This document shows, one piece after another, positions 6,795 through 39,775 of a stretch of 64,000 nt of DNA. Source of the stretch: an uncultured Candidatus Binatia bacterium (GTDB lineage: Bacteria > Desulfobacterota > Binatia > UBA9968 > CAXXLF01). Positions within the stretch are counted from its first letter, which is position 1. The number at the start of each line of letters is the position of its first letter. The DNA lies in the NCBI GenBank assembly GCA_965218425.1, contig OZ244621.1:640001-704000 (forward strand), in the 5' to 3' direction. The position numbers were made by a program, and so were the translations under genes. Under the pieces are notes generated by a model that saw only the letters and a list, made by a program, of their open reading frames with translations, was not told where the DNA came from and did no database searches.

Positions 6795-7045
6795 TAAAAG
6801 GGCCTTTAAAGGCCGGTTATCGAGCCCTGAACGCCCCGTAAAATCCGGCCGGTTTCCGGCCCATTTCCAATTATTTCCGTCCGCCTACACCGATATTTAA
6901 GCCGTGATGCCGGAGTCATGAGCCGTGGGTTGCGACAATTAGAAGACCGTCTTCTAAAGGACAGAGATTTACACAAGAGAACTGGTACGATACAAGCTGA
7001 AATCCGAAAGGGAACGAAACCCAGAATAGCAAAAAGGCATGCCTG
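6795..7045 (+). repeat. Dispersed repeat: shared upstream segment plus IS110-type right-end non-coding module (copy A)
   Basis: Homologous in inverted orientation to about 39508-39775; the 3' part (AACTGGTACGATACAAGCTGAAATCCGAAAGGGAACGAAACCCAGAATAGC) recurs at five other sites. Confidence 0.75.
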
Positions 7046-7111
7046 CCCTCAATTATTATTGAATGATTTTAAACAGTTTGATAGATACTTACTTTTTTAG
7101 ATAATTTATTC

Positions 7112-7140
7112 TTGACAAGTCTCGAAATATAGACTATGCA
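7112..7140 (+). promoter_or_regulatory. Possible sigma70 promoter of the defence operon
   Basis: Perfect TTGACA at 7112, 17-bp spacer, weak -10 TATGCA, AT-rich upstream tract; ATG at 7147. Confidence 0.35.
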
Positions 7141-7146
7141 TGAAAT

Positions 7147-9744
7147 ATGCTTAATAAGCGACACTCGTCGGCTAACCAAATTGTTAGCGTCATAGATACC
7201 GAGCGCCTGCGCGCCGGTCCTGCCTCCGCCTTCGAGCGGGATCCCTCTCGGTTTCTGCCTCAGACGTACCCGACCGAGGACATTCACCGGATGCTGCGTT
7301 GTTTGAGCGGGAGATTCGACCGGTACCTTTCGCTCGGTAACGAGTATCCGGGTCTTATCTTGGCGGAAGGCGTTAAAGGTCAAGGCAAGTCGCACGCGCT
7401 GGTTTTGGCGTATCATCTCTTTGGGAATGCCGAGCCCGCAAGTGGCTGGATGGAATCACATGGATATTCGTGGTCTCCCCCCGCCGATGGAATTGTGATC
7501 GTTGAAAAGTTTACTGACCAGTACCTGCCGTTCGATTCGCTTTGGACATACATCGGCCAAAAGATTGGCGCAAAGTGGTCTCAGGATCACGCTCCGTCCC
7601 TCGTCGAGTTTCGAACCGCGCTAGCGAACCGACACATCGTGCTTATCTTCGACGAGCTTGAACGGGGCATCACAAACATCAGTGATTCCGCCAGGCGCAG
7701 CCAAAATCTCAGCTTTCTCCAGATGCTCTCGGAAGAGGCCAATCGGGGCCGCAGTGTTACCCTGATTGCAGCGATTTATAACGGGGCCGTTGAACCGGGT
7801 CTCACGTTGAAGCGAATCCCTCGGCTGGAGCTTCGGTTTCAAAAAACAGAGGACCGCGCGGCAATAGTTCGGCACCGACTTTTTTCCAACGCTGATTCCT
7901 ATGATCGTAAGGCCGCTGAAAATCTTATTCAATCCTACGTAAACACGTGGCGCCGGATGGGAGTGCAGATGAGCGACGATTATCTCGCCCGTCTGAGATC
8001 CTCTTTTCCATTTTTACCGGAGCTCATCGACCTCATTTTTGAGCGAATGGGAGGAGGAGAGGCCTTCCAAGGGACGCGAGGCGCGTTAGGGCTACTCGGA
8101 GCGATGGTGGACGCGTCGGTCAAAGAACCGGGACTGCTTACGGCCGCCCATTGTAAGCTGACCAATGTCACCTGCGCCAACCGGCTGCAAGATTTGGATC
8201 CGCCGGGTACAACCATCGCCTGTGCAAGCGGTAATCTTCGCGAATTGGCAAATCAGCCTTATGCCGAGGCGATCGCCTCGGCCACGTTGCTCGCGAGCCT
8301 TGTCCCGGGAGGGGTCCGGGGGCTTTCTAAAGAGGAGCTGATTCGCCACGTGGCAGAGCCGGGATACGATCCCAACCAGTTTGAAGCCACACTTGAAACG
8401 TTTCGCCGGTATGGCTCGTATTTTCATAGAGAAGAGAACCGATTCTATTTCGATATCGAGGAAAACGAGGAAGCAAAGGTCGAGCTTGAGGCATACCGAT
8501 CCGGCAACGACGAAGCCGCGCGCCGGCAGATCGCCGACCTTTGGCTCAGAGACATGTTCAAGGAGTCGCAGCAGGCTGTAATCCTTGCCGACCTTGAGAC
8601 AACCCGGGGAGCTTTGAGCGGCATGTCGAAGAGAGGACCCCGATTTGTGCTCGCCCCTCGCCGCTTGTCGAACCCCGAACGAAATGAGTTGTATCAAGGC
8701 GCAGACTACCGGAATCAGATCCTTTTGCTTGAACCGCGGGATGACCAGGCGGGCCACATGAACAATCCCGACCTGTTGTCTGCCGCAAAACGATTTGCTG
8801 CGGCCACGAGTCTTGCCGGTACGGCCCGAACCGCTGAACGCCGGGACCGGTACGAGAAAATCACGGTCCGCGAGCGAAAGCTTATCCTGGATGCCCTCAA
8901 GCAGGCAGGACTCGTTTATATCCGGGTCGAGCGTCGGGAGGAGAACATCGAGGAAACCGTGTTCGAGGTCGAGCCCCTCGGCCAATCCTCTACCCGTGAA
9001 GACGTAGTTAATTTTCTCCGTACGCAGGTGTACACCCGGACTTATTTCGCCGAGCACATGCGCGAGCGGCTGACGAACCTTATGGGGCAATCGGTTGAGC
9101 AGGTTGACCGCCTCTATCGCACCACGCTCGGATATCCGGCCCCGCTTAAAGAGGACATGGTAGCCGCAGCGCTACGGTCTCTGGTCGAAGACGGAGAAAC
9201 CCGCCCCCTCGGCTTGATCGGACCCAGGGGGCGTAGCTATTGCGGGCAGTTTGTGGACTTGACGCCCCCCGAATTGGACGAGGCCATACTCAGCGAGCCC
9301 TGGCATGAGACCAAGACTACTCCTCCGACATCGCAACCAATTCCGCAGCCGGGCCCTACTCCCCCTCAAACCCCGTCGCCGACACCGCCGATCACACCAC
9401 CTGGCTTTGAGGGCGAGGAAGTTGGCACGCCCTCTTATCGTTCTCCGGGTGAATTACGGCAACAAATAGCCGGGCGACTCGCTGACATGTCCGACGGTCA
9501 AGTGCAGAAAGTAAGTTTCCGTATCCTGGCAAACGCCCAGGACGTGGAATTATCCGGGTACAGTTCGGGTGTACGGGGTGCCCTCAGCGGAAAGGGCACG
9601 GTCGACGTTCAAATTGAGCTGACATTTCCCGGTCCTATTACAAAGGCTGAGGTTGAGGCAAAGTGCGAGCAACTACCTCAGGTCCCGTCCGGGTCGTATT
9701 CTGGGCGGCTTCGCGTGTTGCGTAAACGAGGCGAGCAAAGATGA
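7147..9744 (+). CDS. DUF499/BrxC-like P-loop ATPase
   Basis: Walker A GVKGQGKSH, Walker B LIFDELE, FPFLPELID, FQGTRGALGLL; Pro-rich linker before a small C-terminal domain. Confidence 0.75.
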   Translation: MLNKRHSSANQIVSVIDTERLRAGPASAFERDPSRFLPQTYPTEDIHRMLRCLSGRFDRYLSLGNEYPGLILAEGVKGQGKSHALVLAYHLFGNAEPASGWMESHGYSWSPPADGIVIVEKFTDQYLPFDSLWTYIGQKIGAKWSQDHAPSLVEFRTALANRHIVLIFDELERGITNISDSARRSQNLSFLQMLSEEANRGRSVTLIAAIYNGAVEPGLTLKRIPRLELRFQKTEDRAAIVRHRLFSNADSYDRKAAENLIQSYVNTWRRMGVQMSDDYLARLRSSFPFLPELIDLIFERMGGGEAFQGTRGALGLLGAMVDASVKEPGLLTAAHCKLTNVTCANRLQDLDPPGTTIACASGNLRELANQPYAEAIASATLLASLVPGGVRGLSKEELIRHVAEPGYDPNQFEATLETFRRYGSYFHREENRFYFDIEENEEAKVELEAYRSGNDEAARRQIADLWLRDMFKESQQAVILADLETTRGALSGMSKRGPRFVLAPRRLSNPERNELYQGADYRNQILLLEPRDDQAGHMNNPDLLSAAKRFAAATSLAGTARTAERRDRYEKITVRERKLILDALKQAGLVYIRVERREENIEETVFEVEPLGQSSTREDVVNFLRTQVYTRTYFAEHMRERLTNLMGQSVEQVDRLYRTTLGYPAPLKEDMVAAALRSLVEDGETRPLGLIGPRGRSYCGQFVDLTPPELDEAILSEPWHETKTTPPTSQPIPQPGPTPPQTPSPTPPITPPGFEGEEVGTPSYRSPGELRQQIAGRLADMSDGQVQKVSFRILANAQDVELSGYSSGVRGALSGKGTVDVQIELTFPGPITKAEVEAKCEQLPQVPSGSYSGRLRVLRKRGEQR

Positions 9745-10742
9745 ACCGGGCAAACTACGGATTGGACCGAACTCTGTTAAACGAGCTGACTCAGCCGGGA
9801 TTCCGGTTGCCGCCGCTTACTAACTGGCTGATGACCGACGTGTGGACGATGGATCGGTACCGGGGAGTGGGTGAAAAGCCGGCCGATTACTTGATAGAGG
9901 GAGAACGTCTGGTCCATCACCGGGAGACGCTTCTCACCCTGGCCGGAGATTCCCTCTACGATGAGCTTGCATCACCGCCGATCATGAACCGGTCCGTCAA
10001 AGCGTTTTTAGATCAATATCCGGGAGGGTCCGTAGTCATTCTTGACGGATGCTCGATTCGGGAGCTGCCTCGACTCGTTCAATTGGCGGCATCCTCCGGC
10101 CGACCTGTCCTGGAACGAAGTTATGGCTTTGCCGCCGTCCCGAGCGAGACGGAGATGTTCATTGGTCAAAGAATGGGGCTTGGCCTTCCGGCAATTTCTC
10201 CTTCCACTCTCCCTGGCCGGCGAGAGCTGCGGGAACAGGGTATCAAAGCGATTTGGCAGAGGCAGCCGACTCAACGGCTGAGAGTCGAGGACGGTCAAGA
10301 AGCTTTATTGCTATGGGCCCGATTCCCGGACATGCGGTTCATGGATGCGGCGGCGTCCACGGCCGCATTGTTCGATTCTATCTGGGATATGCTGGAGACT
10401 GTCTGGATGCGAACCGTTCAAGTAATGCCGGCGTCACGGCCGGTATTGGTAACAAGCGATCACGGATACATATTTCTCGGCGCCGCCCTGAGCGACCCCA
10501 GGCTAAAGGGAGTCGATAGACCCCTTGAAGGTAAGCGCTACCGTGAGTTTCCCCCTCAAGAAGAGCTGCCTCAGAGAAAACCGGGCCTGTGGGTTGATCC
10601 GGGGCGGCGATTGGCAGTGGTGGCCGGTCGGGCCCACAATCGCCCGCAAGCGCCTTCGCCGAGCAACTCCGTTTACAGGCATGGGGGACTCAGCCTTATG
10701 GAAATGGTGACCCCTTGGTTGGTACTTGGTCCAAAGGAGTAA
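9741..10742 (+). CDS. PglZ-like alkaline phosphatase superfamily protein
   Basis: VVILDGCS, VPSET, VTSDHGY, HGGLSLMEMVTP motifs; ATGA overlap with the ATPase gene. Confidence 0.8.
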   Translation: MNRANYGLDRTLLNELTQPGFRLPPLTNWLMTDVWTMDRYRGVGEKPADYLIEGERLVHHRETLLTLAGDSLYDELASPPIMNRSVKAFLDQYPGGSVVILDGCSIRELPRLVQLAASSGRPVLERSYGFAAVPSETEMFIGQRMGLGLPAISPSTLPGRRELREQGIKAIWQRQPTQRLRVEDGQEALLLWARFPDMRFMDAAASTAALFDSIWDMLETVWMRTVQVMPASRPVLVTSDHGYIFLGAALSDPRLKGVDRPLEGKRYREFPPQEELPQRKPGLWVDPGRRLAVVAGRAHNRPQAPSPSNSVYRHGGLSLMEMVTPWLVLGPKE

Positions 10743-10747
10743 GGGCT

Positions 10748-11068
10748 ATGAAGCAAAAAATCGGCACGCTTATCGAAGAGGACATTATGAGACAAGCCAA
10801 GCGGCGGGCGGCCGGGGAGGGGCGGTCTCTGAGCGACCTCATCCAGGACGCTCTCTTGCAATACCTCCATAAAGAGGCGGCGGCCCCAAAGGAACGGAAG
10901 ATGGCCTATCATCTCTTTTGCGAGCGCCCGATGAAGATACCTCAGGAAGAGCTCCAACACGTGCTGGAAGAAGATACGTGGGACTTAGGCCCGAAGCAGC
11001 TTGAGCAAAGAGACGTCCCGATCCAAGATCCGTTCGGGAAAACGAGAAGGATCACTCTGAAAGACTGA
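10748..11068 (+). CDS. Ribbon-helix-helix antitoxin (VapB-like)
   Basis: KIGTLIEEDIMRQAKRRAAGEGRSLSDLIQDAL RHH pattern directly upstream of a PIN gene. Confidence 0.7.
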   Translation: MKQKIGTLIEEDIMRQAKRRAAGEGRSLSDLIQDALLQYLHKEAAAPKERKMAYHLFCERPMKIPQEELQHVLEEDTWDLGPKQLEQRDVPIQDPFGKTRRITLKD

Positions 11069-11077
11069 AATGACGCT

Positions 11078-11596
11078 ATGAACCTCGACGACATCCCTAG
11101 CGGGAGCCTTTGCGTGCTCGACAGTAATATCCTGATCTACGCGGAACAAGGCGCCTCCATGCAGGCGCAGCGTCTCCTGCGCCGCATTGAAGAACGCGAC
11201 CTGAACGGAGTATTGCCGCAGCCGGTTTGGCAGGAAACCATGCACAGACTGATGGTAACCGAAGCTATCATGGTTGGGCAAATCCGTGGCCCCAATCCCG
11301 CTCGACAGCTTTCTCGGAAGCCGGATGCGGTGAAACAACTGACGCTCTACAAGGAAAAGATAAGGGCATTGATAACTCTAGGCCTTGGCTTTGAGCCGTG
11401 TCAGGAGAGCGATCTTTTAACCGAAGCGCTTGAGATCCAGGATCGGTACGGGCTGCTCACGAACGACTCCTTGATCGCGGCAATGGCGCTGCGACTGGAG
11501 GCGGACGCGTTGGCCTCCACGGACGCGGGGTTCGGAGGTATCAGGGAAATTATGGTCTATGTGCCCACGGATGTGAAGCTTCCTTCAAGATCATGA
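11078..11596 (+). CDS. PIN-domain toxin (VapC family)
   Basis: LDSNILIY, YGLLTNDSLIAAMA, ASTDAGF PIN acidic motifs. Confidence 0.88.
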   Translation: MNLDDIPSGSLCVLDSNILIYAEQGASMQAQRLLRRIEERDLNGVLPQPVWQETMHRLMVTEAIMVGQIRGPNPARQLSRKPDAVKQLTLYKEKIRALITLGLGFEPCQESDLLTEALEIQDRYGLLTNDSLIAAMALRLEADALASTDAGFGGIREIMVYVPTDVKLPSRS

Positions 11597-14500
11597 AATC
11601 AGAGTTTCAACAGACTACTAAGGAATCAAGGTCCGCAATGGCTCCGGCGGAATCCGAAGGCGACGGGACGCTGATGAAGCGTGCGATTGAGGTCGGGTTC
11701 CCTATCGTCGAGATCAACCGGCTTGCCGTTCCGGAGCGGAACTCCTTCAAACCCATTTATCAAATGCACAAGTGGTTCGCCCGTCGCGCCTCCTGCGTCT
11801 TCCGGGCCATTCTTCTGGGAACGCTTAAACCGGCGCACCAGCCGGATGGCGCCCCCACCGACCTCATGGCGGAGTTCTATAAAGACCACTCCGATGATCC
11901 CGATACTAAAGACAAAGTCATTCTTGATCCGTTCATGGGCGGCGGCACGACGGTCGTCGAGGCGCTCAGGCTTGGCTGCCGCGTCATCGGCATCGACCTG
12001 AACCCCGTTGCCTGGTTCATCGTCAAAACCGAGATCGAGCCCGTAGATCCGGATGCGTTACAGGCCGCCTTTGAGCGCCTGGGGGCGCGCCCTGTGGCAT
12101 GGAACGGCGGGTGGCCGCTCAAGGAAACGCTGCTGGGGCTATACCGGACCGAGGTTGCCGGCGGCATTGAAGCCGATGTGATCTACACCTTCTGGGTCAA
12201 GTCCGCCATCTGCACCGATGCTAACTGCCGCCGTGAGGTGCCTCTATTCAAAGACTATATTATCGCTCAAAAAGCCCCGAAGATCCGCTATCATCGGGAC
12301 GCCATCTGTCCCGCATGCAAGAAAACGTTCGATTGGGAAATCCAAGTTGCCTCCCTCATCGCCGAACCGGCACTCATGGTCAATGCACCGCGGGGAAGCG
12401 GGGGAGAGGGAAGGCCGGCGTCTCTGTGGAGCTACGCACACGAACCGCCGAAGCCCCCCAAACGCGGCAACCCATGGCAAACCGATGTGCCTTGCCCTCA
12501 CTGCCAACAATCCGTCCGCATGCAGGTGCCGAGCGCGCGGAAGGAAAGAAAATCAGTTTCCCTGACCGTCCTGCTTTGCCCTGCGTGCGAAGCCGTCTGG
12601 CAATGGCGCGGCTCATTGCCGGACGGTCCAATGGACTGCCCGGCTTGCCACCATTCCTATGATCCCCGCAAGGGTAACGTCCCCGAAAAAGGAAAATTCA
12701 AGTGTAGTTGCGGCCAGAAGGACGACATCATAGCGAGTATTCGCACGTTGCCCCAGGATCAGCGCCTGCCGGTCCGGCCATACGCGGTCCAGGCGTACCT
12801 AAAGCCTAGTGGACAGCAGGACTATGATGATGGCCAGTCAACATTTTTTGAAACTAATGAGCAGGAGCCGCCGAATCATACGGACGACGGGGTGCGCAGG
12901 GTAGAAACCGATGGCCTCTTGTTTCCTGACAACGGCAAGTTCTTCAAGCGTTTCACCGTTGCGGACACGCGGCAGCTACAACAAGTAGAAGCTCTATGGG
13001 AGGAACATAAGGAAAAGTTGCCGTACCCGAAGAGCGCAATCCCTGAAGGGTACAACACCAATCAAATGTTAAAGCATAACTACCGGAATTGGGCTGAGAT
13101 GTTTTCTCCTCGCCAGCTACTTGCCCTGAGCACGCTGCTCCAGGGGATAATGGAGGAAGAGGATGAAAAGCTAAAGGAAAAGTTACTTTGTTCCTTTTCG
13201 GGGTGTCTCGAACTAAACAACGTATTCACTCGATATATGGTCTCCCGTGAAACGGCAGGTGGCCAAACCGCCCAGGGCGTTTTTTCCCGCCATGATTTCC
13301 AACCTAAGACTACGATCACAGAAAACAACGCATTTGGCATAGTAAATATTGGGATGGGCTCCTTCACATCCAAATATTTTCTCGCGATTGATGGACTGAA
13401 ATATCACAATTCTTGCTGGGATTTCTACGATGACACTGATGCGAAAAAGAGAAAGAAGATTGTGGTAGATCAAATCAGTACACAGGAATTGCAGCTGGCC
13501 TGTCGGAGTATTCTCCAGACTGGCGATATGAGTGAGCGTGTGTCACATGTGATCACAGACCCACCCTACGTTGGAAACGTGAACTATTCCGAGCTGGCTG
13601 ACTTCTTTTATGTATGGCTACGTCTGGCTTTGAAGGACCGATATTTCCATTTTGCCCCTGAATATACTCCTAAAAACGGGGAGATAGTTGAAAACAAAAC
13701 TAGAGGAAAAACGAGAAAGGATTTCTTCGACGGGCTTATCGAAGCGTTCAAGCAAATCGGTAGCCAGATGCGTGACGAGGGAGTTTTGGTCTTTACTTTC
13801 CATCATACCGACCAGAAAGGCCTTGTTTGGCAAGGGTTGCTCGAATCTCTTTGCGAAGCTGGCTTTGAGATAGCCGCGGTCTACCCCATTCATGGAGAAT
13901 CGGAATCGTCTTTGCATCTTCAAAACAAAGCAAATGTCTCGTACGACCTGATCCACGTTTGCCGGAAACGAAGTGAGGATATCCCCGCGCGGTCATGGGC
14001 GGGTATCCGGATGGACATGCGGCGTCAGGCGCGGGAGGAATTACAGGCGATAGAGAAGGGCCGCTACGGCAATGAACCTCTGTCAGAGCCCGATGTCCGG
14101 CTTATCTGTATTGGCAAATGCCTGGAGCTCTACAGCACTCATTTCGGCAAGGTCCTTGACCACGAAGGCAAACCCCTCCCGCTTCACAAGGCCTTGCAAG
14201 ACATCTCGGCGACCGTGGACCAGTTGGTGACAAAGGATCGTCCATTGCCCTCTGAGTTGGAAGCCGTGGATGCCTTATCATACGTGTGGCTCAAGGTTCT
14301 AGCGCCGATTCGCAACGAGATCACCGTCGACGCGGTAAGCAAGGCCGCCCGCGTCATGCAGGTATCCGTAGAGGATCTCAAAGGCGCCGACCTGATTGTG
14401 CGCGGGCGTACGGGTCGCGGGCGGACCTATGAAGTGAAACAACCCGGTCAACGCCTGCCGGACTTGCTGCGGCAGTACCAGCCGGGGCAGAGAGTTCGAA

Positions 14501-14766
14501 CTACCCAGGGAGAGTTGTTCACTTCCGAAGGCGAAACGATCTTTTATGACATCAAATTGGTGGACCTACTCCATTTGGTTCTGGGGCTGGCGACCGCGGG
14601 AGAATCCGTCGTGCCTTGGCTGGATCGTTTCGGGGTATTGCGGCCCCAGCTCCGGGCCGCGCTTCGCTTTGCGCGAGACATACGATCGGACTGGAGGGAG
14701 CCGATTGATCGTGTGTTGGCGCTGATCGAAGGCGCGCCGCTTCTCCGGGCCATGGAGGACACCTGA
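11593..14766 (+). CDS. DUF1156-type amino-DNA (adenine) methyltransferase with zinc ribbons
   Basis: HKWFARR, DPFMGGGTT (SAM binding), TDPPY (catalytic), multiple CxxC pairs; alternative start at 11674. Confidence 0.85.
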   Translation: MKSEFQQTTKESRSAMAPAESEGDGTLMKRAIEVGFPIVEINRLAVPERNSFKPIYQMHKWFARRASCVFRAILLGTLKPAHQPDGAPTDLMAEFYKDHSDDPDTKDKVILDPFMGGGTTVVEALRLGCRVIGIDLNPVAWFIVKTEIEPVDPDALQAAFERLGARPVAWNGGWPLKETLLGLYRTEVAGGIEADVIYTFWVKSAICTDANCRREVPLFKDYIIAQKAPKIRYHRDAICPACKKTFDWEIQVASLIAEPALMVNAPRGSGGEGRPASLWSYAHEPPKPPKRGNPWQTDVPCPHCQQSVRMQVPSARKERKSVSLTVLLCPACEAVWQWRGSLPDGPMDCPACHHSYDPRKGNVPEKGKFKCSCGQKDDIIASIRTLPQDQRLPVRPYAVQAYLKPSGQQDYDDGQSTFFETNEQEPPNHTDDGVRRVETDGLLFPDNGKFFKRFTVADTRQLQQVEALWEEHKEKLPYPKSAIPEGYNTNQMLKHNYRNWAEMFSPRQLLALSTLLQGIMEEEDEKLKEKLLCSFSGCLELNNVFTRYMVSRETAGGQTAQGVFSRHDFQPKTTITENNAFGIVNIGMGSFTSKYFLAIDGLKYHNSCWDFYDDTDAKKRKKIVVDQISTQELQLACRSILQTGDMSERVSHVITDPPYVGNVNYSELADFFYVWLRLALKDRYFHFAPEYTPKNGEIVENKTRGKTRKDFFDGLIEAFKQIGSQMRDEGVLVFTFHHTDQKGLVWQGLLESLCEAGFEIAAVYPIHGESESSLHLQNKANVSYDLIHVCRKRSEDIPARSWAGIRMDMRRQAREELQAIEKGRYGNEPLSEPDVRLICIGKCLELYSTHFGKVLDHEGKPLPLHKALQDISATVDQLVTKDRPLPSELEAVDALSYVWLKVLAPIRNEITVDAVSKAARVMQVSVEDLKGADLIVRGRTGRGRTYEVKQPGQRLPDLLRQYQPGQRVRTTQGELFTSEGETIFYDIKLVDLLHLVLGLATAGESVVPWLDRFGVLRPQLRAALRFARDIRSDWREPIDRVLALIEGAPLLRAMEDT

Positions 14767-15197
14767 TGCCCGGGTATCGTCTGATCGAGGAGCGTATGCT
14801 GAAGCCTTCCAATCGCGACGGCATCGAGCAAAATCCTTATCGCATGGGCTTTCTTGATTACATGAGGGAGCTTCGCCAGGACCCTTTCCCGTTTCCTCCC
14901 GGTCACAAGGTTCGGGTCGAGGGGCTTGAGCACGCACTTCTTGCGGCAGGTGACAAGCTTGAAGAAGTAGAGCGTTTTATCCACGACGTCTTGGCCAGTC
15001 GAGCAAACGAGCTTTACTCTGTCGTGGGAAGTGATGTCCAGGTCATATTTCAGGATAAGCTTCAGAGGTCCGATGATTTTTGGGTCGAGGCCGGGCCCCG
15101 GCGGCATTTGAGCCTGCGCCCGATCTTCGGCACGCCCATCCGGCAAGAAGGACCAGGCGGGACGGAATTCTTTTTTGTGGGGTTTAATCTGACATGA
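14766..15197 (+). CDS. Hypothetical protein coupled within the defence operon
   Basis: 143 aa; overlaps both neighbouring genes; no motif recognised. Confidence 0.7.
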   Translation: MPGYRLIEERMLKPSNRDGIEQNPYRMGFLDYMRELRQDPFPFPPGHKVRVEGLEHALLAAGDKLEEVERFIHDVLASRANELYSVVGSDVQVIFQDKLQRSDDFWVEAGPRRHLSLRPIFGTPIRQEGPGGTEFFFVGFNLT

Positions 15198-17992
15198 GTG
15201 AGCAGACGGCTAGATACGAGCAGGTGCAAACGCCGATTGCGCCTAACGATAAGGTCCGAGTTCTCTCTCATCCCGAGTTGGGAATCGGCGAGGTACTGCG
15301 AGTGGCGGAGCAGGCCGGGTTCTATCAGGCGGACGTTGTTTTTGATACTCCTACCGGCCGGCGACTTGAAGCCTTCCCTATTGAACTGCTGGAGCGAACG
15401 GGTGATCTGTGGCAGAGGCTGAAGGAGGGCGCTTTCGACGACTCTACAGCCTACCGGATAAGACAGATCGCCGTAGATCTCGCCCACTCCAATTCGGGTG
15501 GGGAGCTTTCGGCCAGCCGCGTAAACCTTCTCCCTCACCAAATTCTGCTGGTCCATGACTTGGTCGCCATGGCCGAGCGGCGTCTTCTGGTTGCGGATGA
15601 GGTCGGACTGGGAAAAACCATCGAAACCGGCATGCTCCTTCGCGAGTTGAATGCCAGGGGCGAAGTCGACAGGGTTCTCATTGTGACTCCTGCGGGTTTG
15701 GTTAAAAACTGGCAAAACGAACTCCGCGAGTGTTTCCGTCTTCATTGCTCTATCCTCAGTCACGATTTCTATGATTACGGAACGGCTTCCTGGGAAAGCC
15801 ACCCCTGGGTTATTGCCTCTATTGATACCCTTAAGCAGCCGCGTAGAATGCAGCGGCTCCTCGGAGGGCCAAGGTGGGATGTGATCATTTTCGATGAGGC
15901 CCATCATTTGTCTCGAACGCGCACCGGAAAAAAGACCGTCACGACCCAGAACTACAAACTCGCCGAAACTCTGCGAAGCCACACGCGGGATCTGCTCTTT
16001 CTGTCAGCCACTCCCCATCAGGGCAATCCGTTCCAGTTCTGGTCATTGATCCAACTGCTCAACGACCAGCTCTTTAGCAATCCGGATGAGCTGAGTGAGC
16101 ACCGGGGCCTGCTGGCGCGCGTTATGATTCGACGGACCAAGCGGGAGGTGACTGACGCCGGAGGCAATCCGATCTTTCGGCGCCGCCAAGTTAATACGGA
16201 ACGCTTCCCTTTGGCCCCGCGCGAGCGTGAGTTCTACGACAGCCTAAGTGAATATTTGCGGGAAGGCTACGACGTCGCCGGTATAAATCAGTCGAGGACG
16301 ACTCGGCAGCAGCGGGCCATTGGTTTTGTCATGGCCACCTTCCAAAAGATCATGTCTTCGAGCCCGCGTGCGATTCGCCAAGCGCTCAGGCGCCGCCTCC
16401 TTGTCCTGCTGGTCCGAAAGCAGCTTGCGCTGGAAGCCAAACGCCGGTCTGGCGCGTCCAACAGTGATGCGATCCTCAAGATTCAAGACGAGATGCTCCA
16501 GGTGGCCCGGGCTATTCTCGGCGAACAGACCGCCGATAACTTGGACGGCGAAGCTTATGTTTTGCGTGTTCGACGCCGACTGCTAAAGCGGATGGACGAA
16601 AACTACGAGACGACTTCGTGGTCGCTCGACGGCGACGAAGAAGCGGAGGAAGGAGTATACGCTGACGCCGATATCCCCCAGGAGATCGAGAAGGTTCGGG
16701 AGTTGATCCAATTGGTTCCCAAAGGGACTGATCGTCGTTTCGATACGCTGGTGCAAGCAGTCAGCGAACTCTCCGAGAACAATTCTGACGAACGGTTCGT
16801 GATTTTTACTCAGTATCGCGACACGCTCGAATTCCTTTCTGAGGAATTGGGTAAAATCTATGGCTCGAATCGCATGGCACGAATTATCGGAGGCCCATTG
16901 GAAGACAAGGTCGCGGCTATGGAGTCATTTTGGGACCCGGATGGAGCCCGTTTTCTCATTAGCACCTCAGCCGGCGGCGAGGGGATAAATCTTCAAATCG
17001 GGCATATTGTTTTTAATTACGACCTTCCGTGGAATCCGATGGCCGTCGAGCAGCGTATCGGCCGAATTCACCGCTATGGACAGGAGGAGACGGTGCAGGT
17101 CTACAACTTGCTGGCACAGGACACCGTGGAAGAACATATCTACGGCCTGTTGGACCAAAAGCTTTTAGAGATTGCACGCTCCATCGGTAATACCGATTCA
17201 CAGGGGCGACCCCTCGAAGACTTTCGGAGCGATGTTCTGGGTTATCTTGGAAGCCGTCCGGACTATCAGGACTTGTACAAGCGTGCTCTGGTCAACCGCG
17301 ACTACAGGCACACGGATGCTGAACTTCAACGCATGATTCAAGAAGCGCTGCGCGCTCGCGAAGCGCTGGACCGATTGGCCCAGGATTTAGGGCATTTTAA
17401 TCTCGAGCACTATCGAACGTTGGAGGGACGGTATTCTCTGGGGGAGCTTGGCGAGTGGGTCCGGGCGGCCATCCTAAACCTCGGCGGCGGCGCCGTTCCA
17501 ACGGGCGAATTCTGGACCTTAATTTGTCCCGACTCGTTGCAGCGTAACTACCGTCTGCTTCCAAGATACGAGAGAGTTTGTTTTGACCGGGACATCGCGC
17601 TCCGCAATCGCGGCTGCGAACTCGGAGGGATCGGACACCCGTTAGTGGACGCTCTCCTCGCGGAAACTCGATCCCCAACCTTGGCGGGTGAAGTCGGGGA
17701 CCTAGGGACGGGAGCTCTGTGTGCTCGTTATCTCGTGCGCCGCCGTGATGAACGAGGTCTCATCCAGAGTCGTGTGATTACCTTGACGTACCAACCCACC
17801 ACCGGGGAGGTCCAAACGCTCCCGCACTTCCCAACAGATGAGGGGTCTAGCTCTGACAATAATGGAGATGGGGATCTTGCCCAGGCTCGCTCAGCAATTG
17901 AAAGCGCATTGGAAACCGAAATCAATAGCTGGCTCCCCAGTCGGCAGTCCCGGATTGGTTTGAATATCTCCCTGGTCGGTCTGCACTGGTGA
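15194..17992 (+). CDS. SNF2/RapA-like helicase
   Basis: LVADEVGLGKT, DEAHH, SATPHQG, GGEGINLQ, YDLPWNPMAVEQRIGRIHRYGQ. Confidence 0.92.
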   Translation: MSEQTARYEQVQTPIAPNDKVRVLSHPELGIGEVLRVAEQAGFYQADVVFDTPTGRRLEAFPIELLERTGDLWQRLKEGAFDDSTAYRIRQIAVDLAHSNSGGELSASRVNLLPHQILLVHDLVAMAERRLLVADEVGLGKTIETGMLLRELNARGEVDRVLIVTPAGLVKNWQNELRECFRLHCSILSHDFYDYGTASWESHPWVIASIDTLKQPRRMQRLLGGPRWDVIIFDEAHHLSRTRTGKKTVTTQNYKLAETLRSHTRDLLFLSATPHQGNPFQFWSLIQLLNDQLFSNPDELSEHRGLLARVMIRRTKREVTDAGGNPIFRRRQVNTERFPLAPREREFYDSLSEYLREGYDVAGINQSRTTRQQRAIGFVMATFQKIMSSSPRAIRQALRRRLLVLLVRKQLALEAKRRSGASNSDAILKIQDEMLQVARAILGEQTADNLDGEAYVLRVRRRLLKRMDENYETTSWSLDGDEEAEEGVYADADIPQEIEKVRELIQLVPKGTDRRFDTLVQAVSELSENNSDERFVIFTQYRDTLEFLSEELGKIYGSNRMARIIGGPLEDKVAAMESFWDPDGARFLISTSAGGEGINLQIGHIVFNYDLPWNPMAVEQRIGRIHRYGQEETVQVYNLLAQDTVEEHIYGLLDQKLLEIARSIGNTDSQGRPLEDFRSDVLGYLGSRPDYQDLYKRALVNRDYRHTDAELQRMIQEALRAREALDRLAQDLGHFNLEHYRTLEGRYSLGELGEWVRAAILNLGGGAVPTGEFWTLICPDSLQRNYRLLPRYERVCFDRDIALRNRGCELGGIGHPLVDALLAETRSPTLAGEVGDLGTGALCARYLVRRRDERGLIQSRVITLTYQPTTGEVQTLPHFPTDEGSSSDNNGDGDLAQARSAIESALETEINSWLPSRQSRIGLNISLVGLHW

Positions 17993-18054
17993 AGACGTTA
18001 CGAGGCCAAGCTGGGGGAACGACAATAACGGACAGTAACCGATGTCAGGTAACA

Positions 18055-18248
18055 TGAAAAAGGGGTCAAGCTCCAGTAGGACGGTGGTTGTAACGGCCAT
18101 CAAACCTGAAAGGAGAAAACCCCATGCTTTGGTGGACCGCGTCCAAGTGGACAGGATATTCCAAGAGCGAATTGGTACAATACAGGCTGGAATCCGAAAG
18201 GGAAGGAAACCCGGAACAGCAAAAAGGCAAGTATGGCTCCAATTATGA
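18055..18248 (+). mobile_element. Internally deleted IS110/IS1111-type mini-element (copy B)
   Basis: Left end TGAAAAAGGGGTCAAGC, RBS AAAGGAG and ATGCTTT joined directly to the shared right-end module; right IR degenerate. Confidence 0.65.
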
Positions 18249-18333
18249 AAGACCCAAGAAAATATTGCATCCACGCAACGGGGCTCGGAGACTTTTTGCC
18301 TTGCTTTACAATCCAGCAGAATAGGCGACCAGG

Positions 18334-22290: not shown

Positions 22291-22878
22291 CTACCCTGGA
22301 TTTCTCGAAGTCCATATCTCGTGCACAAACTCACGAGCGCTTTTAAGATCAAGATCTGTCGAAAGTTCGCGTGTTTCGATCACCTGTTGCACCCACCCTG
22401 GTCCATGCCCACCGACGGATTTGCAGAAGCCTTCCAACTCGCCAACAGGTACGATCCAGAGGCCCTTCTTCTTGAAAAGCGCTTTTAGTTTTTGGAACTG
22501 TTGCGTGGCCTGCCCCTTGGGAATGGCGGCTTCTCCCGCTTCCTTGACAGCATCCCAAGGGGACGCCTTTCTAAATATCTTCTCAATTTCCTTCTGCGTT
22601 TCTTTTGGAAACTCACCCTTCGTCTGTATGGTTTCCAATTTCCCCAAAATCGCCTTTTTAATTTCACCCGTATTCGACCACGGTTTGTGTTCCTCGATAG
22701 ATTTACGAATAGTTCGGACAATGGGCTCTATTTTATTCCAACTTATCCCAAGAATTCCGACAATATTTTCAAGAACATCATCACTCTTCAAAATGTCTAA
22801 ATCTGATATAACGTCCACCCGCACGTCGAGTTCCGTCAACGCCCTTGCCAGCGCAGCCATTCGATGCTTACCGTGTGT
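22291..22878 (-). pseudogene. 5'-truncated OLD-family ATP-dependent nuclease (TOPRIM C-terminal part)
   Basis: HGKHRM..LARAL..LDVRVDVISDLD, WIVPVGELE; frame runs into the 50-bp repeat core at 22879. Confidence 0.6.
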
Positions 22879-23095
22879 GGGGTCAGACCTTGACATTTGA
22901 CATGATTCATCTCGCCTTCTCAAAAGTTGCGAAATGGCCCGTAAACCGCCCATGCAAAGCCCCTGAAAGGGCCGTGCAACGACCGCGCTCGATGCCGCCC
23001 ATGCCCGGGCAGCTTGCCGAGCCTTGCATCGCCGTAGACCGCCTGCGCCTCCGTAGATTGCCCTCGCCCCTGCCTTGGGCATAGCGCGGAAACAG
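22879..23095 (+). repeat. GGGGTCAG core repeat, subtype 2 (core 22879-22928)
   Basis: GGGGTCAGACCTTGACATTTGACATGATTCATCTCGCCTTCTCAAAAGTT plus about 165 bp shared with 32352-32573 (inverted). Confidence 0.9.
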
Positions 23096-26641: not shown

Positions 26642-26646
26642 GGAGG

Positions 26647-28938: not shown

Positions 28939-29015
28939 TATTGCTTAACCTGCTGGCAGGATCTGTTATCGCTAGACGGTGGAAATCCGCGCCCGCTTCC
29001 CGGCCGCACGTTGTG

Positions 29016-29443
29016 GGGGTCAGACCTTGACATTTGACATGATTCATCTCGCCTTCTCAAAAGTTATTGAGGGAGCACTAAAGCTCTCCCGCCACCGTCG
29101 CCCCCCGGGTTGCACTGTCCCGACACCACGGGGCGGCGGCTGCTGCAATATGCGTCAAGACGCCGTCGCATGACGTGGAGCGGCACGGCCATGTCGTCTT
29201 TTGAAACCGCTGTCAGGCTTGCCCCTTTTCTATTCCGGGTTTCCTTCCCTTTCGGATTCCAGCTTGTTCGTGCCAATTCTATTGTGGAATGTCCTGTCCA
29301 TTTGGACCCGGTGCTTTCCTGTCAATGGCATTTACCTGGGCGTGTCTTTTGTGAAAGCATGGGGTCTTCTCCTTTCAGGTTTGTTGGCTGCCATAACCAC
29401 TATCCTACTGGAGCTTGACCCCTTTTTCATGTTACCTGACCCC
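29016..29443. mobile_element. Composite miniature element: GGGGTCAG core (subtype 1) plus mini-IS110 copy C, bounded by GGGGTCAG...CTGACCCC
   Basis: Core 29016-29065; mini-IS110 IRs at 29202-29218 and 29413-29429; terminal CTGACCCC at 29436-29443. Confidence 0.8.
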
Positions 29444-29663
29444 CGGTCCAATGGAGCCGTTGCTGGCAACTTCTATGGGAGTGGCCATGAAGGGGTTGCA
29501 GGCTCGCTGGAGCGCAACGACCTGACAGCAGCAGCATTTGGGGCCAGCCGATATGCAGACGATGAGCCAAGACTACCGCTTGAGAACCCACTCACTAGTA
29601 AAATAATCAATGGTATGGCTAAATTCCAAAAAGGCCAAGTGTTGGTATAGAAAAGGAGAAAGC

Positions 29664-29870: not shown

Positions 29871-29889
29871 CCAACGGGAAACTAACGCG

Positions 29890-30100
29890 ATGGCACTAGG
29901 CACGAAAACAGGTGGGAAACCGTTTGAACAGGGCAATAAGCTGGCAAAGGGCGGCCGCAGGAACCCGCCTGGAGGCAGACCCAGCAATGCCCAACTGGCA
30001 GCGAAGACGGCCATGATCGAGATTTGGGAGAAGGAACTCGCCAAGAAGGAAAGAAAAGTGGCGGCGCGCTATGCAGAGCAAGCTCTAAAAGATAACAGAG
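29890..30100 (+). pseudogene. Phage DUF5681/terminase-small-subunit-like gene, truncated
   Basis: FEQGNKLAKGGRRNPPGGRP N-terminal motif; interrupted by repeat copy D. Confidence 0.45.
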
Positions 30101-30232
30101 AAACCGGTGTCATGCCTGCCTTTTTGCTATTTTGGGTTTCCTTCCCTTTCGGATTCCAACTTGTATTGCACCAGTTCTCTCTTGGAACGTCCTGTCCATT
30201 TAGAGGCGGTGCTCTAATTGGCCCAACCCACT
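30100..30232 (-). repeat. IS110-type right-end non-coding module (copy D)
   Basis: Homologous to copies A, B, C, E, F. Confidence 0.75.
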
Positions 30233-30243
30233 GCTCGGACTAT

Positions 30244-30675
30244 GGGGTCAGACTTTGACATTTGACATGATTCATCTCGCCTTCTCAAAAGTTATTGAGG
30301 GAGCACTAAAACTCTCCCGCCACGGTCGCCCCCCAGGTTGCACTGTCCCGACACCACGGGGCGGCGGCTGCCGCAATATGCGTCAAGACGCCGTCGCATG
30401 ACGTGGAGCGGCTCGGCCATGTCGTTCTTTGAAACCGCCGTCAGGCTTGCCCCTTTTCTATTCCGGGTTCCCTTCCCTTTCGGATTCCCGCTTGTATTGT
30501 GCCAATTCTCTTTTGGAACGTCCTGTCCATTTCCCGTCGATTGAATTTACCTGAGCGTATCGTTTGTGATAGTCTATCCCGACATAAAGCATGGGGTCTT
30601 GTCCTTTCAGGTTTGATGGCCGTTACAACCACCATCCTGCTGGAGCTTGACCCCTTTTTCATGTTACCCGATTCC
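30244..30675. mobile_element. Composite miniature element: GGGGTCAG core plus mini-IS110 copy E
   Basis: Core 30244-30293; IRs 30430-30446 and 30645-30661; minus strand encodes MLYVGIDYHKRYAQVNSIDGK fused to the right-end module. Confidence 0.8.
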
Positions 30676-30720
30676 GATTACGAAGCGATTGGCGGCCCTT
30701 CGAGGAGGCGGAACAGCCGG

Positions 30721-30972: not shown

Positions 30973-32210
30973 TACTGGAAATCCTCCAACGCGGGAATGC
31001 GGCCGTACGCGATCTTGGCCCCGGCGTAGCCGCCCGCAGGAGCGCACCCGCCGTAGCCGATGACGGTGCGCGCATAGCGGCCGTTGATCGAATCGACGGC
31101 CGCGCTCACCCTCGCCCTGACCGACCCGGCATCCGGCTCTCCGAAAGGCAGCTCGGGCTGCACGCCGGCCGCCGGCATGAACCGGTCGAACGACACGGCG
31201 ATGCGGAACAGGGAGGCCCGGCCCCGCGCCTCGGCGAGCGCGGCCCAGAGCGCCGACAGGGCGCCGAGGCAAGTCAGGTCGTCGTTCGCTCCTGGGACGG
31301 CCGCCGCGGCCTTCCACGACGGCGCATCGAGGCAGTCGGCCGACAGGGTGAGCCTCCGGGCGAGGAACCCCTCCCGGCGCAAGCGCCGGGCCGCCTTCAC
31401 CACCAGTTGCCTGGCCATCGGCCGGGCTGACTGCGCGCCGCGCTCCCCCGGAGGCAGGACCCGGCCGTGGCCGATGGCGCCGCGTTGCGTCTGCGGCGCT
31501 TGCACCGCGTAGCCGTGCAGCGCGTACCAGCAGCGCGCCCCGCTCACATTGCCCCAGACCGCTCTCAGCCGTCCGGGTTCGCTTTTCCAAAGGTCTTCGA
31601 CCGTCGTTATCCCGGCCCGCCCCAGACGCGCGCGCATGCGCCCGCCGACTCCGGGCAATTCCTCCAGCCCGAGGTCGAGCAGCGGACCTGGCAGGTCGCC
31701 GGAAAGCAGCACCGTCAGGCCATCGGGCTTTTTCATGTCCGCGGCGATCTTGGCCAGCCACCTGTTGGGCGCACAGCCGATGGAGCAGGTGACGCGTTCC
31801 CCCACGGCTTCCCGCACGCCGGCCTTGATCCTTCCCGCGATCTCTTCGGGACGGTCCCGATCCTCCAGAACCATGGCGAGCTCGTCGATCGAGCAGATCA
31901 CATCGATCGGCAACACGGAGAGCACCGCCGCCACGATCCGCCGGTGGACGCGCACGTACAGGTCCGGCCGCTGCGCCACGAGAGCTATCCGGGAACACAG
32001 CCGGCGCGCATCGGCGATCGAAGTCCCGGTCTTGACGCCGAATCTCTTGGCCGCCGCGTTGGCGGCGATCACGCAACTGTTTTTCGCCCCCGCAAACGGT
32101 ATGACCCCGACGGGAAGGCCGTGCAGGCCGGGGTCCGCCTGCTCCTCGCAGGACGCAAAAAAGCCGTCAAAATCGATGTAGAGCCGCTCCGGCGCAGGTG
32201 GCTGGCGCAT
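30972..32210 (-). CDS. Y-family DNA polymerase (DinB/UmuC-like)
   Basis: LYIDFDGFFASCE, SIDE, AKIAADMKKPDG, LPGVG motifs. Confidence 0.9.
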   Translation of the reverse strand: MRQPPAPERLYIDFDGFFASCEEQADPGLHGLPVGVIPFAGAKNSCVIAANAAAKRFGVKTGTSIADARRLCSRIALVAQRPDLYVRVHRRIVAAVLSVLPIDVICSIDELAMVLEDRDRPEEIAGRIKAGVREAVGERVTCSIGCAPNRWLAKIAADMKKPDGLTVLLSGDLPGPLLDLGLEELPGVGGRMRARLGRAGITTVEDLWKSEPGRLRAVWGNVSGARCWYALHGYAVQAPQTQRGAIGHGRVLPPGERGAQSARPMARQLVVKAARRLRREGFLARRLTLSADCLDAPSWKAAAAVPGANDDLTCLGALSALWAALAEARGRASLFRIAVSFDRFMPAAGVQPELPFGEPDAGSVRARVSAAVDSINGRYARTVIGYGGCAPAGGYAGAKIAYGRIPALEDFQ

Positions 32211-32351
32211 AGTTCCCCCCAAGCGAAAAGAAAGCGAATATACGCATCATGAGCGGAAGATGCAAGTGGGGCGGTTTCGAACAGGATCGCTCAGGGGGAG
32301 GCCGTGGCGCCGGGACAAATTACGTGGATGGGGAGACGGAGGGATCACCTG

Positions 32352-32573
32352 CCGCGCTATGCCCAAGGCAAGGACGAGGGCAGTCCTCAAAGGCGCCGGC
32401 GGTCTACGGCGATGCAGGGCTCGGCACGCTGCTCGGACACCGGCGGCATCGAGCACGGTCGTTGCACGGCCCTTTAACGGGCATTTAAGGGGCTTTGCAT
32501 GGGCGGTTTACGGGTCGTTCCGCAACTTTTGAGAAGGCGAGATGAATCATGTCAAATGTCAAGGTCTGACCCC
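32352..32573 (-). repeat. GGGGTCAG core repeat, subtype 2 (core 32524-32573)
   Basis: Inverted homologue of 22879-23095. Confidence 0.9.
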
Positions 32574-32694
32574 ACAATTCGATCGTTTCAAGGCTTCTCC
32601 CTTCTCTCCGAGGACTCTGAAACGCCACTCTATTCCAGCTCTGAATGGATGTCGATTTCGCGGGAACGTCACTTGCGTGATATACTTAAGAACT

Positions 32695-37295: not shown

Positions 37296-37483
37296 GGGGT
37301 CAGACCTTGACATTTGACATGATTCATCTCGCCTTCTCAAAAGTTATTGAGGGAGCACAAAAGCTCTCCCGCCGCTGTCGCCCCCCAGGTTGCACTGTCC
37401 CGACACCACGGGGTGGCGGCTGCTGCAATATGCGTCAAGACGCCGTCGCATGACGTGGAGCGGCACGGCCATGTCGTCTTTTG
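37296..37483 (+). repeat. GGGGTCAG core repeat, subtype 1, without mini-IS110
   Basis: Near-identical to 29016-29203; similarity stops where the IS110 IR begins in the other copies. Confidence 0.9.
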
Positions 37484-38635: not shown

Positions 38636-38661
38636 GGTTGAACCATCTCAATTATGCTCGG

Positions 38662-39105
38662 TTATGAATTGGGTTGATTGTTAGCGAGCTTCGTTTGTTC
38701 TCTTGGCTTCAGCAGGGTAGGATCTGCGGAGTGGCGTTCGGGAACGGCTTCAGAGCCCCGTTGCACCTTCACCACGTTGCCATTGAAGAAGCCGCCTTTG
38801 GATATTACGAGAGAATCCGTTTCGACGTTACCGCTTACGCGTCCCGTGGCCGTGATCTCGACAGTGCCGGTGGCGACCATATTACCCTCGTACTGCCCCA
38901 TAATGAGGGCGTCGGTCGTGCGGACGTCGGCGCGGACAATCCCCTTCTCGCCGATCACGAATCTGCCGCCTACATTGATTTCACCCGTGACTTCGCCCTT
39001 GATCTGGATCGATTCGGTAATATTAAATTTACCTTCCAGCCGGGCGCCTTCGCCGATAACGGTGAGGGGTGGAACTGAAGGATCGCGGCGTTTGTTTTTG
39101 AACAT
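38662..39105 (-). CDS. Bactofilin (polymer-forming cytoskeletal protein)
   Basis: TVIGEGARLEG...GNVETDSLVISKGGFFNG. Confidence 0.88.
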   Translation of the reverse strand: MFKNKRRDPSVPPLTVIGEGARLEGKFNITESIQIKGEVTGEINVGGRFVIGEKGIVRADVRTTDALIMGQYEGNMVATGTVEITATGRVSGNVETDSLVISKGGFFNGNVVKVQRGSEAVPERHSADPTLLKPREQTKLANNQPNS

Positions 39106-39320
39106 AAATGGATCTCCTCGGGCCTGGAATCAAGCACGGATCGTGCCAAAAGAATCCCGTTCACCTCTACATGATCACCATCTGACGGTCAAGTCCCATT
39201 TTTCCCGTAAAAGGCTGAGGCGTTGGATATCCTCTTTCCCACATCAGGCAACGGCCAGTTGAGCGGGAGAAGCCGTCATAGTCTCCATCGAGGTTGTTCG
39301 AGCTGCTTGATCACGTTGTG

Positions 39321-39775
39321 GGGGTCAGACCTTGACATTTGACATGATTCATCTTGCCTTCTCAAAAGTTATTGAGGGAGCACGAAAACTCTCCCGCCGC
39401 TGTCGCCCCCCCAGGTTGCACTGTCCCGACACCACGAGGTGGCGGCTGCTGCAATATGCGTCAAGACGCCGTCGCATGACGTGGAGCGGCTCGGCCATGT
39501 CGTCTTTTGAAACCGCCGTCAGCCTTGCCCCTTTGCTATTCCGGGTTCCCTTCCCTTTCGGATTCCCGCTTGTATCGTGCCAATTCTCTCTTGGAATGTC
39601 CTGTCCTTTTGGACGCGGTGTTCTAATCGGCCCAACCCACGGCTCATCACCCCGGCATCACGGCTTGAATACCGGTGTGGGCGAACGGAAATAATTGGAA
39701 ATGGACCGGAAACCTGCCGGATTTTCCGGCCCGTTTAGGGCTCGAAAAACGGGCCTTAAATGGCCGTTAAATCGG
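39321..39775. repeat. GGGGTCAG core (subtype 1), IS110 right-end module (copy F) and shared upstream segment
   Basis: Core 39321-39370; IR TGAAACCGCCGTCAGCC at 39508-39524; 39508-39775 is an inverted homologue of 6795-7045. Confidence 0.85.

Follow-up and report, generated by a model that had tools for sequence, protein, structure and literature searches.

Why does a bacterial genome hold many copies of a short non-coding sequence joined to the ends of an insertion sequence (IS) whose transposase it lacks? The question is raised by a 64,000-nucleotide (nt) stretch of DNA from an uncultured Candidatus Binatia bacterium (the window; G000:C1:640001-704000), which lies within a single-contig genome of 4,459,497 bases. 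A first-pass annotation had described six copies of a conserved module there and read it as a bridge RNA, or seekRNA, kept in mini-IS110 elements after loss of the transposase. Our analysis indicates that the module is probably the inner non-coding body of non-autonomous deletion derivatives of an IS1111-type (IS110-family) element, similar to MITEs (miniature transposable elements with inverted repeats); the derivatives are here called minis. The mini-IS half of the earlier interpretation holds and the half in which a bridge RNA is retained fails: rather than a reservoir of orphan guides, the module is best seen as a relic of the usual sort.

Miniature IS110-family units without their transposase

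A 26-nt core of the module, allowing up to three mismatches, is found at six places in the window, at 6999 and 18189 on the + strand and at 29235, 30132, 30463 and 39541 on the - strand, in agreement with the six copies first described. No match of any kind appeared in 100 shuffles, and a 30-nt 5' part of the module matches in four of the six copies. Reading the copies confirmed that three of them, B, C and E, are fused to a left end (LE) with a ribosome-binding site (RBS) and an ATG in each. The sequence MLYVGIDYHKRY, reported as a transposase start, is read both in copy E and in a solo left end at 39959, and the 17-nt imperfect inverted repeat said to bound copies C and E is present in both. 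The window has no IS110-family transposase gene and the genome has none of this lineage, as the description of the elements as transposase-less had it.

Copy B (18037..18257, +) is a complete mini of a ~177-nt class, with the flank AACCGATGTCAGG at 18037-18049, LE at 18050-18123, ATG at 18124, module at 18136-18227 and right end at 18228-18257; units 89-90% identical to it occur between different flanks in two related genomes, G001 and G002. Copy C (29195..29447, -) follows the flank GGGGTCAGG, with LE from 29434, ATG at 29360, module at 29312-29222 and the right end CAAGCCTGACAGCGGTTTCAAAAGACG at 29221-29195. In copy E (30424..30679, -), LE starts at 30666, the ATG is at 30592, the module runs from 30530 and the right end occupies 30449-30424. 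Copies A and D lack a left end: A (6945..7056, +) consists of the module core (to 7037) and a degenerate right end, and D (30100..30236, -) is a module with the 5' part GTGGGTTGGGCCAATTAG. Copy F (39501..39660, -) comprises a module (core 39620-39528) and a right end (39527-39501).

These copies belong to a much larger set. A fuzzy motif scan of the genome returned 51 module matches, two of which were unrelated by eye, leaving 49 copies; blastn across the genome gave 50 module and 44 left-end matches, together with 20 to a ~190-nt repeat, R2, and 21 to a ~150-nt repeat, upAF. As counted from the blastn listing, LE precedes 25 module copies and upAF precedes 16, the remainder being truncated or in other contexts, and the copies are grouped in about ten genome regions. 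A complete mini has four parts, namely LE (a ~75-nt 5' untranslated region with its RBS), the first 2 to ~22 codons of the transposase, the module (~95 nt) and a short right end, in which the subterminal inverted repeat GCCTGAC..GGTTTCA lies. At 20 genome places the module lies within 400 nt downstream of an IS110-family LE, RBS and first codons; by length, a measure that leaves out C and E, ten of these pairs are 251-253 nt, five are 176-178 nt, and single pairs are 217, 231 and 235 nt.

The ten ~252-nt copies have a common junction after codon 22 and different outer flanks. Their identity per 20-nt window is 0.90-0.96 in LE, 0.82-0.90 in the transposase remnant, 0.78-0.93 in the module and 0.72 in the right end, and falls to 0.25 beyond it; between copies, identity is 72-96%. 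The flank immediately left of LE is exactly GGGTCAGG in 17 of 37 LE copies and within one mismatch of it in 31 (our own count). Both IS ends, no transposase and many copies of one architecture at different loci are what defines a MITE-like IS derivative, and the minis show all three, with a right terminus that has diverged and an exact end that is uncertain. Beyond this genome, a search of 60 relatives turned the module up in two: G001, of the same genus, has 12 matches, and G002, of the same family, has three. Among 400 further genomes of the phylum there was just one marginal 31-nt match, and plasmid and phage collections held no match to a 479-nt composite of copy F.

Full-length relatives and their candidate seekRNA

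Which element do the left ends come from? With the longest remnant (60 amino acids, aa) as protein query, we found four relatives, P0001-P0004, which are 331-355 aa long, 72-78% identical to it over the first 60 aa and each have PF01548 and PF02371; the motif GLAPSTYASGG stands out in their alignment. We then collected 86 related loci, seven from one-genome-per-species contigs and 79 from metagenome contigs. All seven of the former are truncated genes (residues up to 201) from metagenome-assembled genomes labelled delta proteobacterium, Methylomirabilales, Binatia and Thermodesulfobacteriota; many of the 79 are full length. LE is recognisable in 50 of the 86, with 95.7% identity at L053, 93.9% at L083 and 89.6% at L052. 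By blastn, none of the 86 loci carries the module, R2 or upAF.

In the relatives, about 75 nt separate the start of LE from the ATG, and 140-265 nt lie between the stop codon and the right-end (RE) terminus. Likeness between full-length loci stops right after ..TTCAGAGAAGG, which marks that terminus; the RE end reads CAGAGAAGG, a sequence repeated inside the RNA described below. LE, TAAC-ATGAAAAAGGGGTCAAGC, faces RE, GCTTGAC..CTTTTTCAG-AGAAGG, as inverted repeats a few bases inside each end, and the minis have an imperfect subterminal match of TGAAAAAGGGGTCAAGC to the reverse complement of GCCTGACAGCGGTTTCA. Subterminal inverted repeats are a hallmark of IS1111 (PMC11187229), and the relatives combine them with a DEDD transposase and a long non-coding region downstream of it. 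They are site-specific, with GGGTCAGG or CTAGCAGG as left flank and no long target duplication, and sit inside long palindromes with outer arms GGGGTCAGG...CCTGACCCC. From the GG that ends both flank and RE, we infer a shared core.

The first ~95 nt of the relatives' 3' region contain a hairpin, GGGCTC[loop]GGAGCC, for example GGGCTC with the loop TGGGTCAGG ATAG and GGAGCC; the arrangement is seen among the loci L052-L111, L053:1361-1455 and L054:3564-3658 being examples. A left flank GGGGTCAGG goes with the loop TGGGTCAGG, and a flank (A/C)CTAGCAGG with GCTAGCAGG or ACTAGCAGGG. Among 12 distinct combinations of flank, loop, LE and guide, eight have a loop identical to the final 8 nt of the flank and three have one near it (one or two bases, or the register, off); in the twelfth the flank is lost at a contig end. 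No combination mixes the target classes GGGTCAGG and CTAGCAGG. A second motif, GT(T/A)AC, is complementary to G and the four opening bases of LE (TAAC or TTAC) and fits 10 of the 12 combinations; in a third, GAAGAGAAGG, the end of RE recurs. There is also a second hairpin, GUGUGGC..GGCCAC, with compensatory GUGCGGC/GGCCGC variants. At L089 and L108 this RNA region seems to be turned round with respect to the transposase gene. SeekRNAs contain short sequences matching the target strands (PMC11187229). Because the loop and the motifs match target and LE, we take the relatives' 3' non-coding RNA to be the seekRNA of this IS lineage, with the order and strands of its segments as read from DNA alone. 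A search of the Binatia genome for this RNA gave nothing below E 0.05 by blastn and no significant match by covariance model.

The cognate transposase is missing as well, from G000, G001 and G002 alike. Fragments of its N-terminus reach at most 28 aa in the window and 60 aa in the genome, the reading frames opened by the ATG of LE being short. Searching the genome with a full-length relative (tblastn) yielded nothing past residue ~60 except two unrelated IS110-family copies and one weak 57-residue match, and searches for PF01548 and PF02371 each found only the same two copies. These two resident copies (428 aa, 1.8 kb, AT-rich) were rejected as the parent at 22% identity, with different ends and no module. 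They lie at genome positions 2784810-2786613 and 4378150-4379953 and are 99.3% identical to each other; their first ~45 nt differ, and they start AGGCT(C/G)CTGGAATCG(A/G)AATA, which resembles the module's CTGGAATCCGAAA, probably by chance. In G001 and G002, matches to the transposase N-terminus span merely 21-22 residues. The IS110-family genes of G001 (frames of 347 and 437 aa) were likewise discarded as a parent, being 26.5% identical to a relative and having neither LE nor module.

A full-length IS110 element with these ends, for which the first-pass annotation proposed a search of the genome, was not found there; the metagenome relatives have an LE 90-96% identical to that of the minis and lack the module. 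That similarity, the subterminal repeats, a GGGTCAGG flank identical to the relatives' guide loop and the ten ~252-nt copies bear out the description of the minis as non-autonomous IS110-family derivatives, of IS1111 type.

The module compared with the guide RNA

If the module were the family's bridge or seekRNA, kept in transposase-less copies as a guide donor for a transposase acting in trans, it might be expected to resemble the relatives' 3' RNA, and its position does suit this explanation: it takes the place of the 3' non-coding region of IS1111, with the transposase remnant on one side and the inverted repeat of the right end on the other. In addition, TGGACAGGA, ACGAT and CGAAAGGGAAGG in the module parallel TGGGTCAGGA, ACGAT and CGAAGAGAAGG in the authentic RNA, with their order kept and their distances from a TAG similar, a likeness noted by eye, post hoc and without statistical support. 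Homology searches point the other way. A covariance model, R1, built from 21 authentic 3' RNA sequences and run on the window with filters off, gave 12 weak matches (E >= 0.47), none of them on the module or an R2 copy; over the whole genome its best match (E 0.67) lay away from the module copies. A module profile searched against the 86 loci with nhmmer returned a single match, at E = 2, in keeping with the blastn result. The module thus stands downstream of no IS110 transposase as far as these searches reached, an outcome that the first-pass annotation had itself named as refuting its proposal.

A guide should also match its target. Compared in either sense with its own left flank and the start of LE, the module consensus has a longest exact match of 4-5 nt, a length that over 80% of shuffles attain; the RNA of L053, taken as positive control, has the 8-nt match to GGGTCAGG, which 1% attain. 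The module stretch nearest to the flank, TGGACAGG, differs from it at two of eight positions in nearly all copies, where the candidate guide reads GGACAGG and the flank GGTCAGG.

Is there at least a conserved fold? Our structure alignment held 63 copies, 49 from this genome and 14 from G001 and G002, and RNAalifold derived from it a consensus of 8 pairs at -4.3 kcal/mol. A structure built by hand, with a CUGG/CCAG helix, a UCC-GAAA-GGG hairpin and two further helices, has 86.2% of its cells paired against 85.3% in shuffles, and 15 cells changed on both sides against 8.4, in an alignment whose copies (78% mean column identity) are too alike for a strong test; for that reason the module's structure is unproven, not excluded. 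The CC-GAAA-GG hairpin, reported as invariant, is nearly so, but its pairs never covary and two of the 63 copies have an unpaired GUGAAAGG. The change from CTGG/CCGG to TTGG/CCAA, reported as compensatory, exists in the sequence, but over the 63 copies both outer pairs of the helix it was held to support have 13 unpaired cells each. Of the checks proposed at the outset, the one on loop pairing came out negative, with flank matches at shuffle level, and covariation was no better than in shuffles.

Taken together, an authentic 3' RNA that is different and absent from the genome, a module found at none of the 86 loci and the lack of guide-like matches and of convincing structure or covariation make it highly improbable that the module is a retained bridge or seekRNA or a guide donor; judged on sequence, that reading appears already largely refuted.

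Might the module instead code for a peptide, whether a small protein or the C-terminus of the transposase? The ATG of LE in copy E opens a frame that continues through the module to a stop, giving a fusion open reading frame (ORF) of 44 aa. Among the copies, however, fusion ORFs read the module in all three frames, a TAG stands just upstream of it in copies A, D and F, and nothing in the genome resembles transposase residues 61-355. We rejected the module as coding sequence on these grounds, and the chance that it encodes a peptide is practically negligible.

A third possibility is that the module is a small RNA (sRNA) or other regulatory cargo that hitchhikes between the IS ends, perhaps acting on the transposase mRNA or on neighbouring genes. 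There is a precedent in ssr9/MITEPpu9 of Pseudomonas putida KT2440, which has copies of the IS ends on its flanks, circularises with the ISPpu9 transposase and is dispensable for transposition (PMC12288879). The central 20 nt of the module are slightly better conserved than the rest, and minis lie between genes of defence-island type. However, no promoter-like or terminator-like site was seen inside copies C, D or E, the fold is weak, and no Rfam family matched at gathering scores over the whole window or at E up to 1 over 39250-40050. The module also shows neither similarity nor antisense complementarity to LE and its 5' untranslated region (local score 15 against a shuffle mean of 15.7), and we rejected the idea that it copies the left end or pairs with it in antisense. 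We regard such cargo as decidedly unlikely. That the module is a lineage-specific functional RNA at all, be it a hitchhiking regulatory sRNA or a strongly diverged guide with other pairing rules, seems very unlikely; were it true, some fifty RNA-bearing, transposase-less units could be re-activated when a related transposase arrives on incoming DNA. Of the three rivals that remain, namely a hitchhiking sRNA, co-amplification with hairpins (discussed below) and a diverged guide, the diverged guide is the least likely.

Origin of the minis and comparison with known systems

How could the minis have arisen? We propose that a full-length relative, now absent, supplied a DEDD transposase and a seekRNA with the guide loop GGGTCAGG, which would explain why minis lie directly to the right of GGGTCAGG. 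Having kept the recognition ends, the minis would have been mobilised in trans to GGGTCAGG sites, and loss of the autonomous element would have left them stranded and decaying. The module itself may be a part of the ancestor's long 3' non-coding region, specific to the lineage, that the internal deletion spared, or it may have been captured as filler. Two precedents favour this history, namely the circles that MITEPpu9 forms with the ISPpu9 transposase (PMC12288879) and the movement of cargo between IS ends, given transposase and seekRNA (PMC11187229).

Several observations weigh against this history. A full-length parent carrying the module was found nowhere in our searches, so that descent by deletion is itself an inferred step. 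No empty target sites were seen: two regular-expression scans of the genome returned chance matches only; in G001 and G002 the flanks of B and of two isolated copies are not collinear, the flanking regions not being conserved; and among contigs of four DNA runs compared with window 6000-20000 no joint skips a mini. Loss of the sequence between two CCATGCTTT repeats by deletion can turn the 252-nt class into the ~177-nt class, and one ~177-nt copy has its left flank in common with a 252-nt copy; as this deletion may recur, the class is weak evidence for spread after the deletion. The central stretch CTGGAATCCGAAAGGGAAGG is kept at 0.93 between neighbours at 0.78-0.86, which could reflect constraint. 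Where upAF precedes the module, it stands in place of the left end, a spread that mobilisation of the minis leaves unexplained.

The right boundary, too, can be drawn in two ways, either at ..GCAAGAAGG, followed by the hairpin arm CAAGCCTGACNCCGG, or ~27 nt further on at ..GGTTTCAAAAGACG. On the first reading the end would have AGAAGG in common with the authentic terminus, and CAAGCCTGACNCCGG would be the right arm of a palindromic target. This agrees with the GGGGTCAGG...CCTGACCCC palindromes around the relatives and with a Binatia contig on which an intact hairpin stands beside a truncated copy. On the second, GCCTGACNCCGGTTTCA is read as the right subterminal repeat and the end lies near ..CAAAAGACG, as the family layout and the G001 and G002 copies, whose likeness continues through ..GGTTACAAAGACG, would have it.

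The same arms bear on another explanation, in which the minis are passengers of palindromic hairpins like REPINs (hairpin-forming pairs of repetitive extragenic palindromic, or REP, sequences), multiplied by a Y1 transposase of the REP-associated (RAYT) type or by recombination and not by an IS110-type transposase. The hairpin arms are RRCCGGGGTCAGG and CCTGACNCCGGYY, sometimes with longer outer arms; a mini lies within each arm pair found, hairpins of this kind without one were not seen in the genome, and a further repeat, GGGATTCACTTAAAGCG, flanks some minis on both sides. The palindromes around the relatives and the Binatia hairpin fit here too, and the genome has four Y1_Tnp matches, one of them ~500 nt from a module copy. 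Yet the outer two bases of left and right arms agree in only 13 of 20 cases against ~10 expected (our own count), the right arm can equally be read as the family's subterminal inverted repeat, and the G001 and G002 units remain alike past the arm. Multiplication as hairpin passengers is, in our judgement, unlikely. Descent of the minis from an IS1111-type element by internal deletion is the reading we carry forward.

Further repeats adjoin the minis. R2 abuts copy C (29016..29204, -), where it ends ..AACTTTTGAGAAGG and CGAGATG..GGTCTGACCCC in an RE-like terminus, and copy E (30244..30432, -), where copy D comes directly after it; it also follows copy F (39322-39510), and a solo copy without module lies at 37296..37483 (-). 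It ends in the authentic-looking terminus CTCAATAACTTTTGAGAAGG and adjoins minis at the same point in nine of ten full copies, which suggests alternative right ends or nested insertions. As the missing seekRNA it was rejected, with no covariance-model match on any copy, and its 49-aa ORF is lost from one copy to another as the length of a G-run varies. The upAF repeats are a separate family, found upstream of copy A (6797..6920, +), before copy F (39650-39800) and at 53312-53407; they have internal GGCCNTTTAAGGCCC-like motifs, and twice (genome 236065 and 1941626) upAF lies inverted directly after transposase residue ~50.

Two left ends in the window lack a module. Solo left end G (39872..40042, +) has the flank AATCGGGGTCAGG, LE from 39885 and its ATG at 39959, with transposase likeness only to residue 28. 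Between upAF and this left end, at 39805-39870, a ~20-nt tandem repeat, GGGATGATGCGGGATGAACC, runs for about three units, an arrangement seen again at genome 2036230-2036282. Remnant H (53151..53407, +) is a diverged left end (LE at 53164-53217) followed by the upAF copy at 53312-53407 in the same orientation. Elsewhere in the genome, the 1,249 nt to the left of another solo left end (L196, 3535600-3536848) are 99% identical to G001:C4:703730-704978, while other regions common to the two genomes are 83-92% identical; this suggests a recently exchanged island.

As to the surroundings, mini B lies (window 15194-21610) between a gene for an SNF2-family helicase (932 aa) and a gene pair for HATPase_c_3 (611 aa) and SIR2_2 plus HEAT (482 aa) proteins, surroundings suggestive of a defence island. 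Copies C, D and E are contained in a 9.7-kb segment (22876-32576) bounded by inverted ~210-nt repeats with outer ends GGGGTCAGACCTTGACATTTGACATGA; its boundaries include a 50-nt RE-like tail (AACTTTTGAGAAGG...GGTCTGACCCC) on a different inner sequence at 22876..22928 (-) and its counterpart at 32524-32573 (+). This segment, which has a low-GC stretch (0.45-0.46 at 24-28 kb), a DUF5655 protein and ORFs of 378 and 763 aa without Pfam matches, is possibly a larger mobile unit. A 487-aa ORF at 55097-56560 (-) resembles a DDE transposase of another IS family, unrelated to the minis, and a diverged second copy of its upstream region occurs at 21658-21959. A 107-aa ORF (51519-51842, -) lies beside 160-nt direct repeats (51334-51493 and 52990-53149); its N-terminus may resemble that of a REP-associated Y1 transposase, and the four Y1_Tnp matches of the genome lie elsewhere.

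What do these minis teach? When shortened IS110/IS1111 copies keep a 3' module, this may be something other than the guide RNA, and the authentic guide is better identified by its covariation with insertion flanks. The classes GGGTCAGG and CTAGCAGG, with their matching loops, offer a clean natural example in a single IS1111-type lineage of uncultured bacteria. The 49 minis make an unusually numerous IS110-family MITE-like set in a genome without an autonomous element, usable to date and study such stranding; annotators would do best to mask these repeats as remnants of an IS instead of calling small ORFs in them.

A literature search for IS110-family MITEs brought up the MITEPpu9 paper and papers on MITEs at large. 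Among known systems, MITEPpu9 is close: both it and the minis are non-autonomous IS110-family units bounded by copies of IS ends and found linked to an IS or alone, and mobilisation in trans is held for both (PMC12288879). They differ in that ISPpu9 belongs to the IS110 group, while the minis are IS1111-type, with subterminal repeats and a 3' non-coding region, and in that the minis keep an RBS and the first transposase codons. MITEPpu9 has eight copies alongside seven resident transposase genes, the minis 49 with neither a cognate transposase nor its guide RNA in the genome. Ssr9 is an sRNA of high abundance with complementarity to Asr9; for the module, neither a promoter (in C, D and E) nor complementarity to LE was found.

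The relatives, in turn, resemble ISEc11, ISPa11 and ISKpn4, IS1111 elements with a 3' seekRNA, in the DEDD transposase of 351-355 aa with GLAPSTYASGG, the subterminal repeats, the downstream non-coding region and the short RNA segments matching the target (PMC11187229). Unlike these, the window holds shortened copies only, with no transposase and no seekRNA, and the target is GGGTCAGG at the outer arm of palindromic repeats. With REPINs and RAYTs the minis have in common that they are short, dispersed and intergenic with inverted arms, in a genome with RAYT-like genes; they differ in their IS110-family left end and transposase start, and in a left flank that equals an IS1111-type guide loop, which REPINs leave unexplained.

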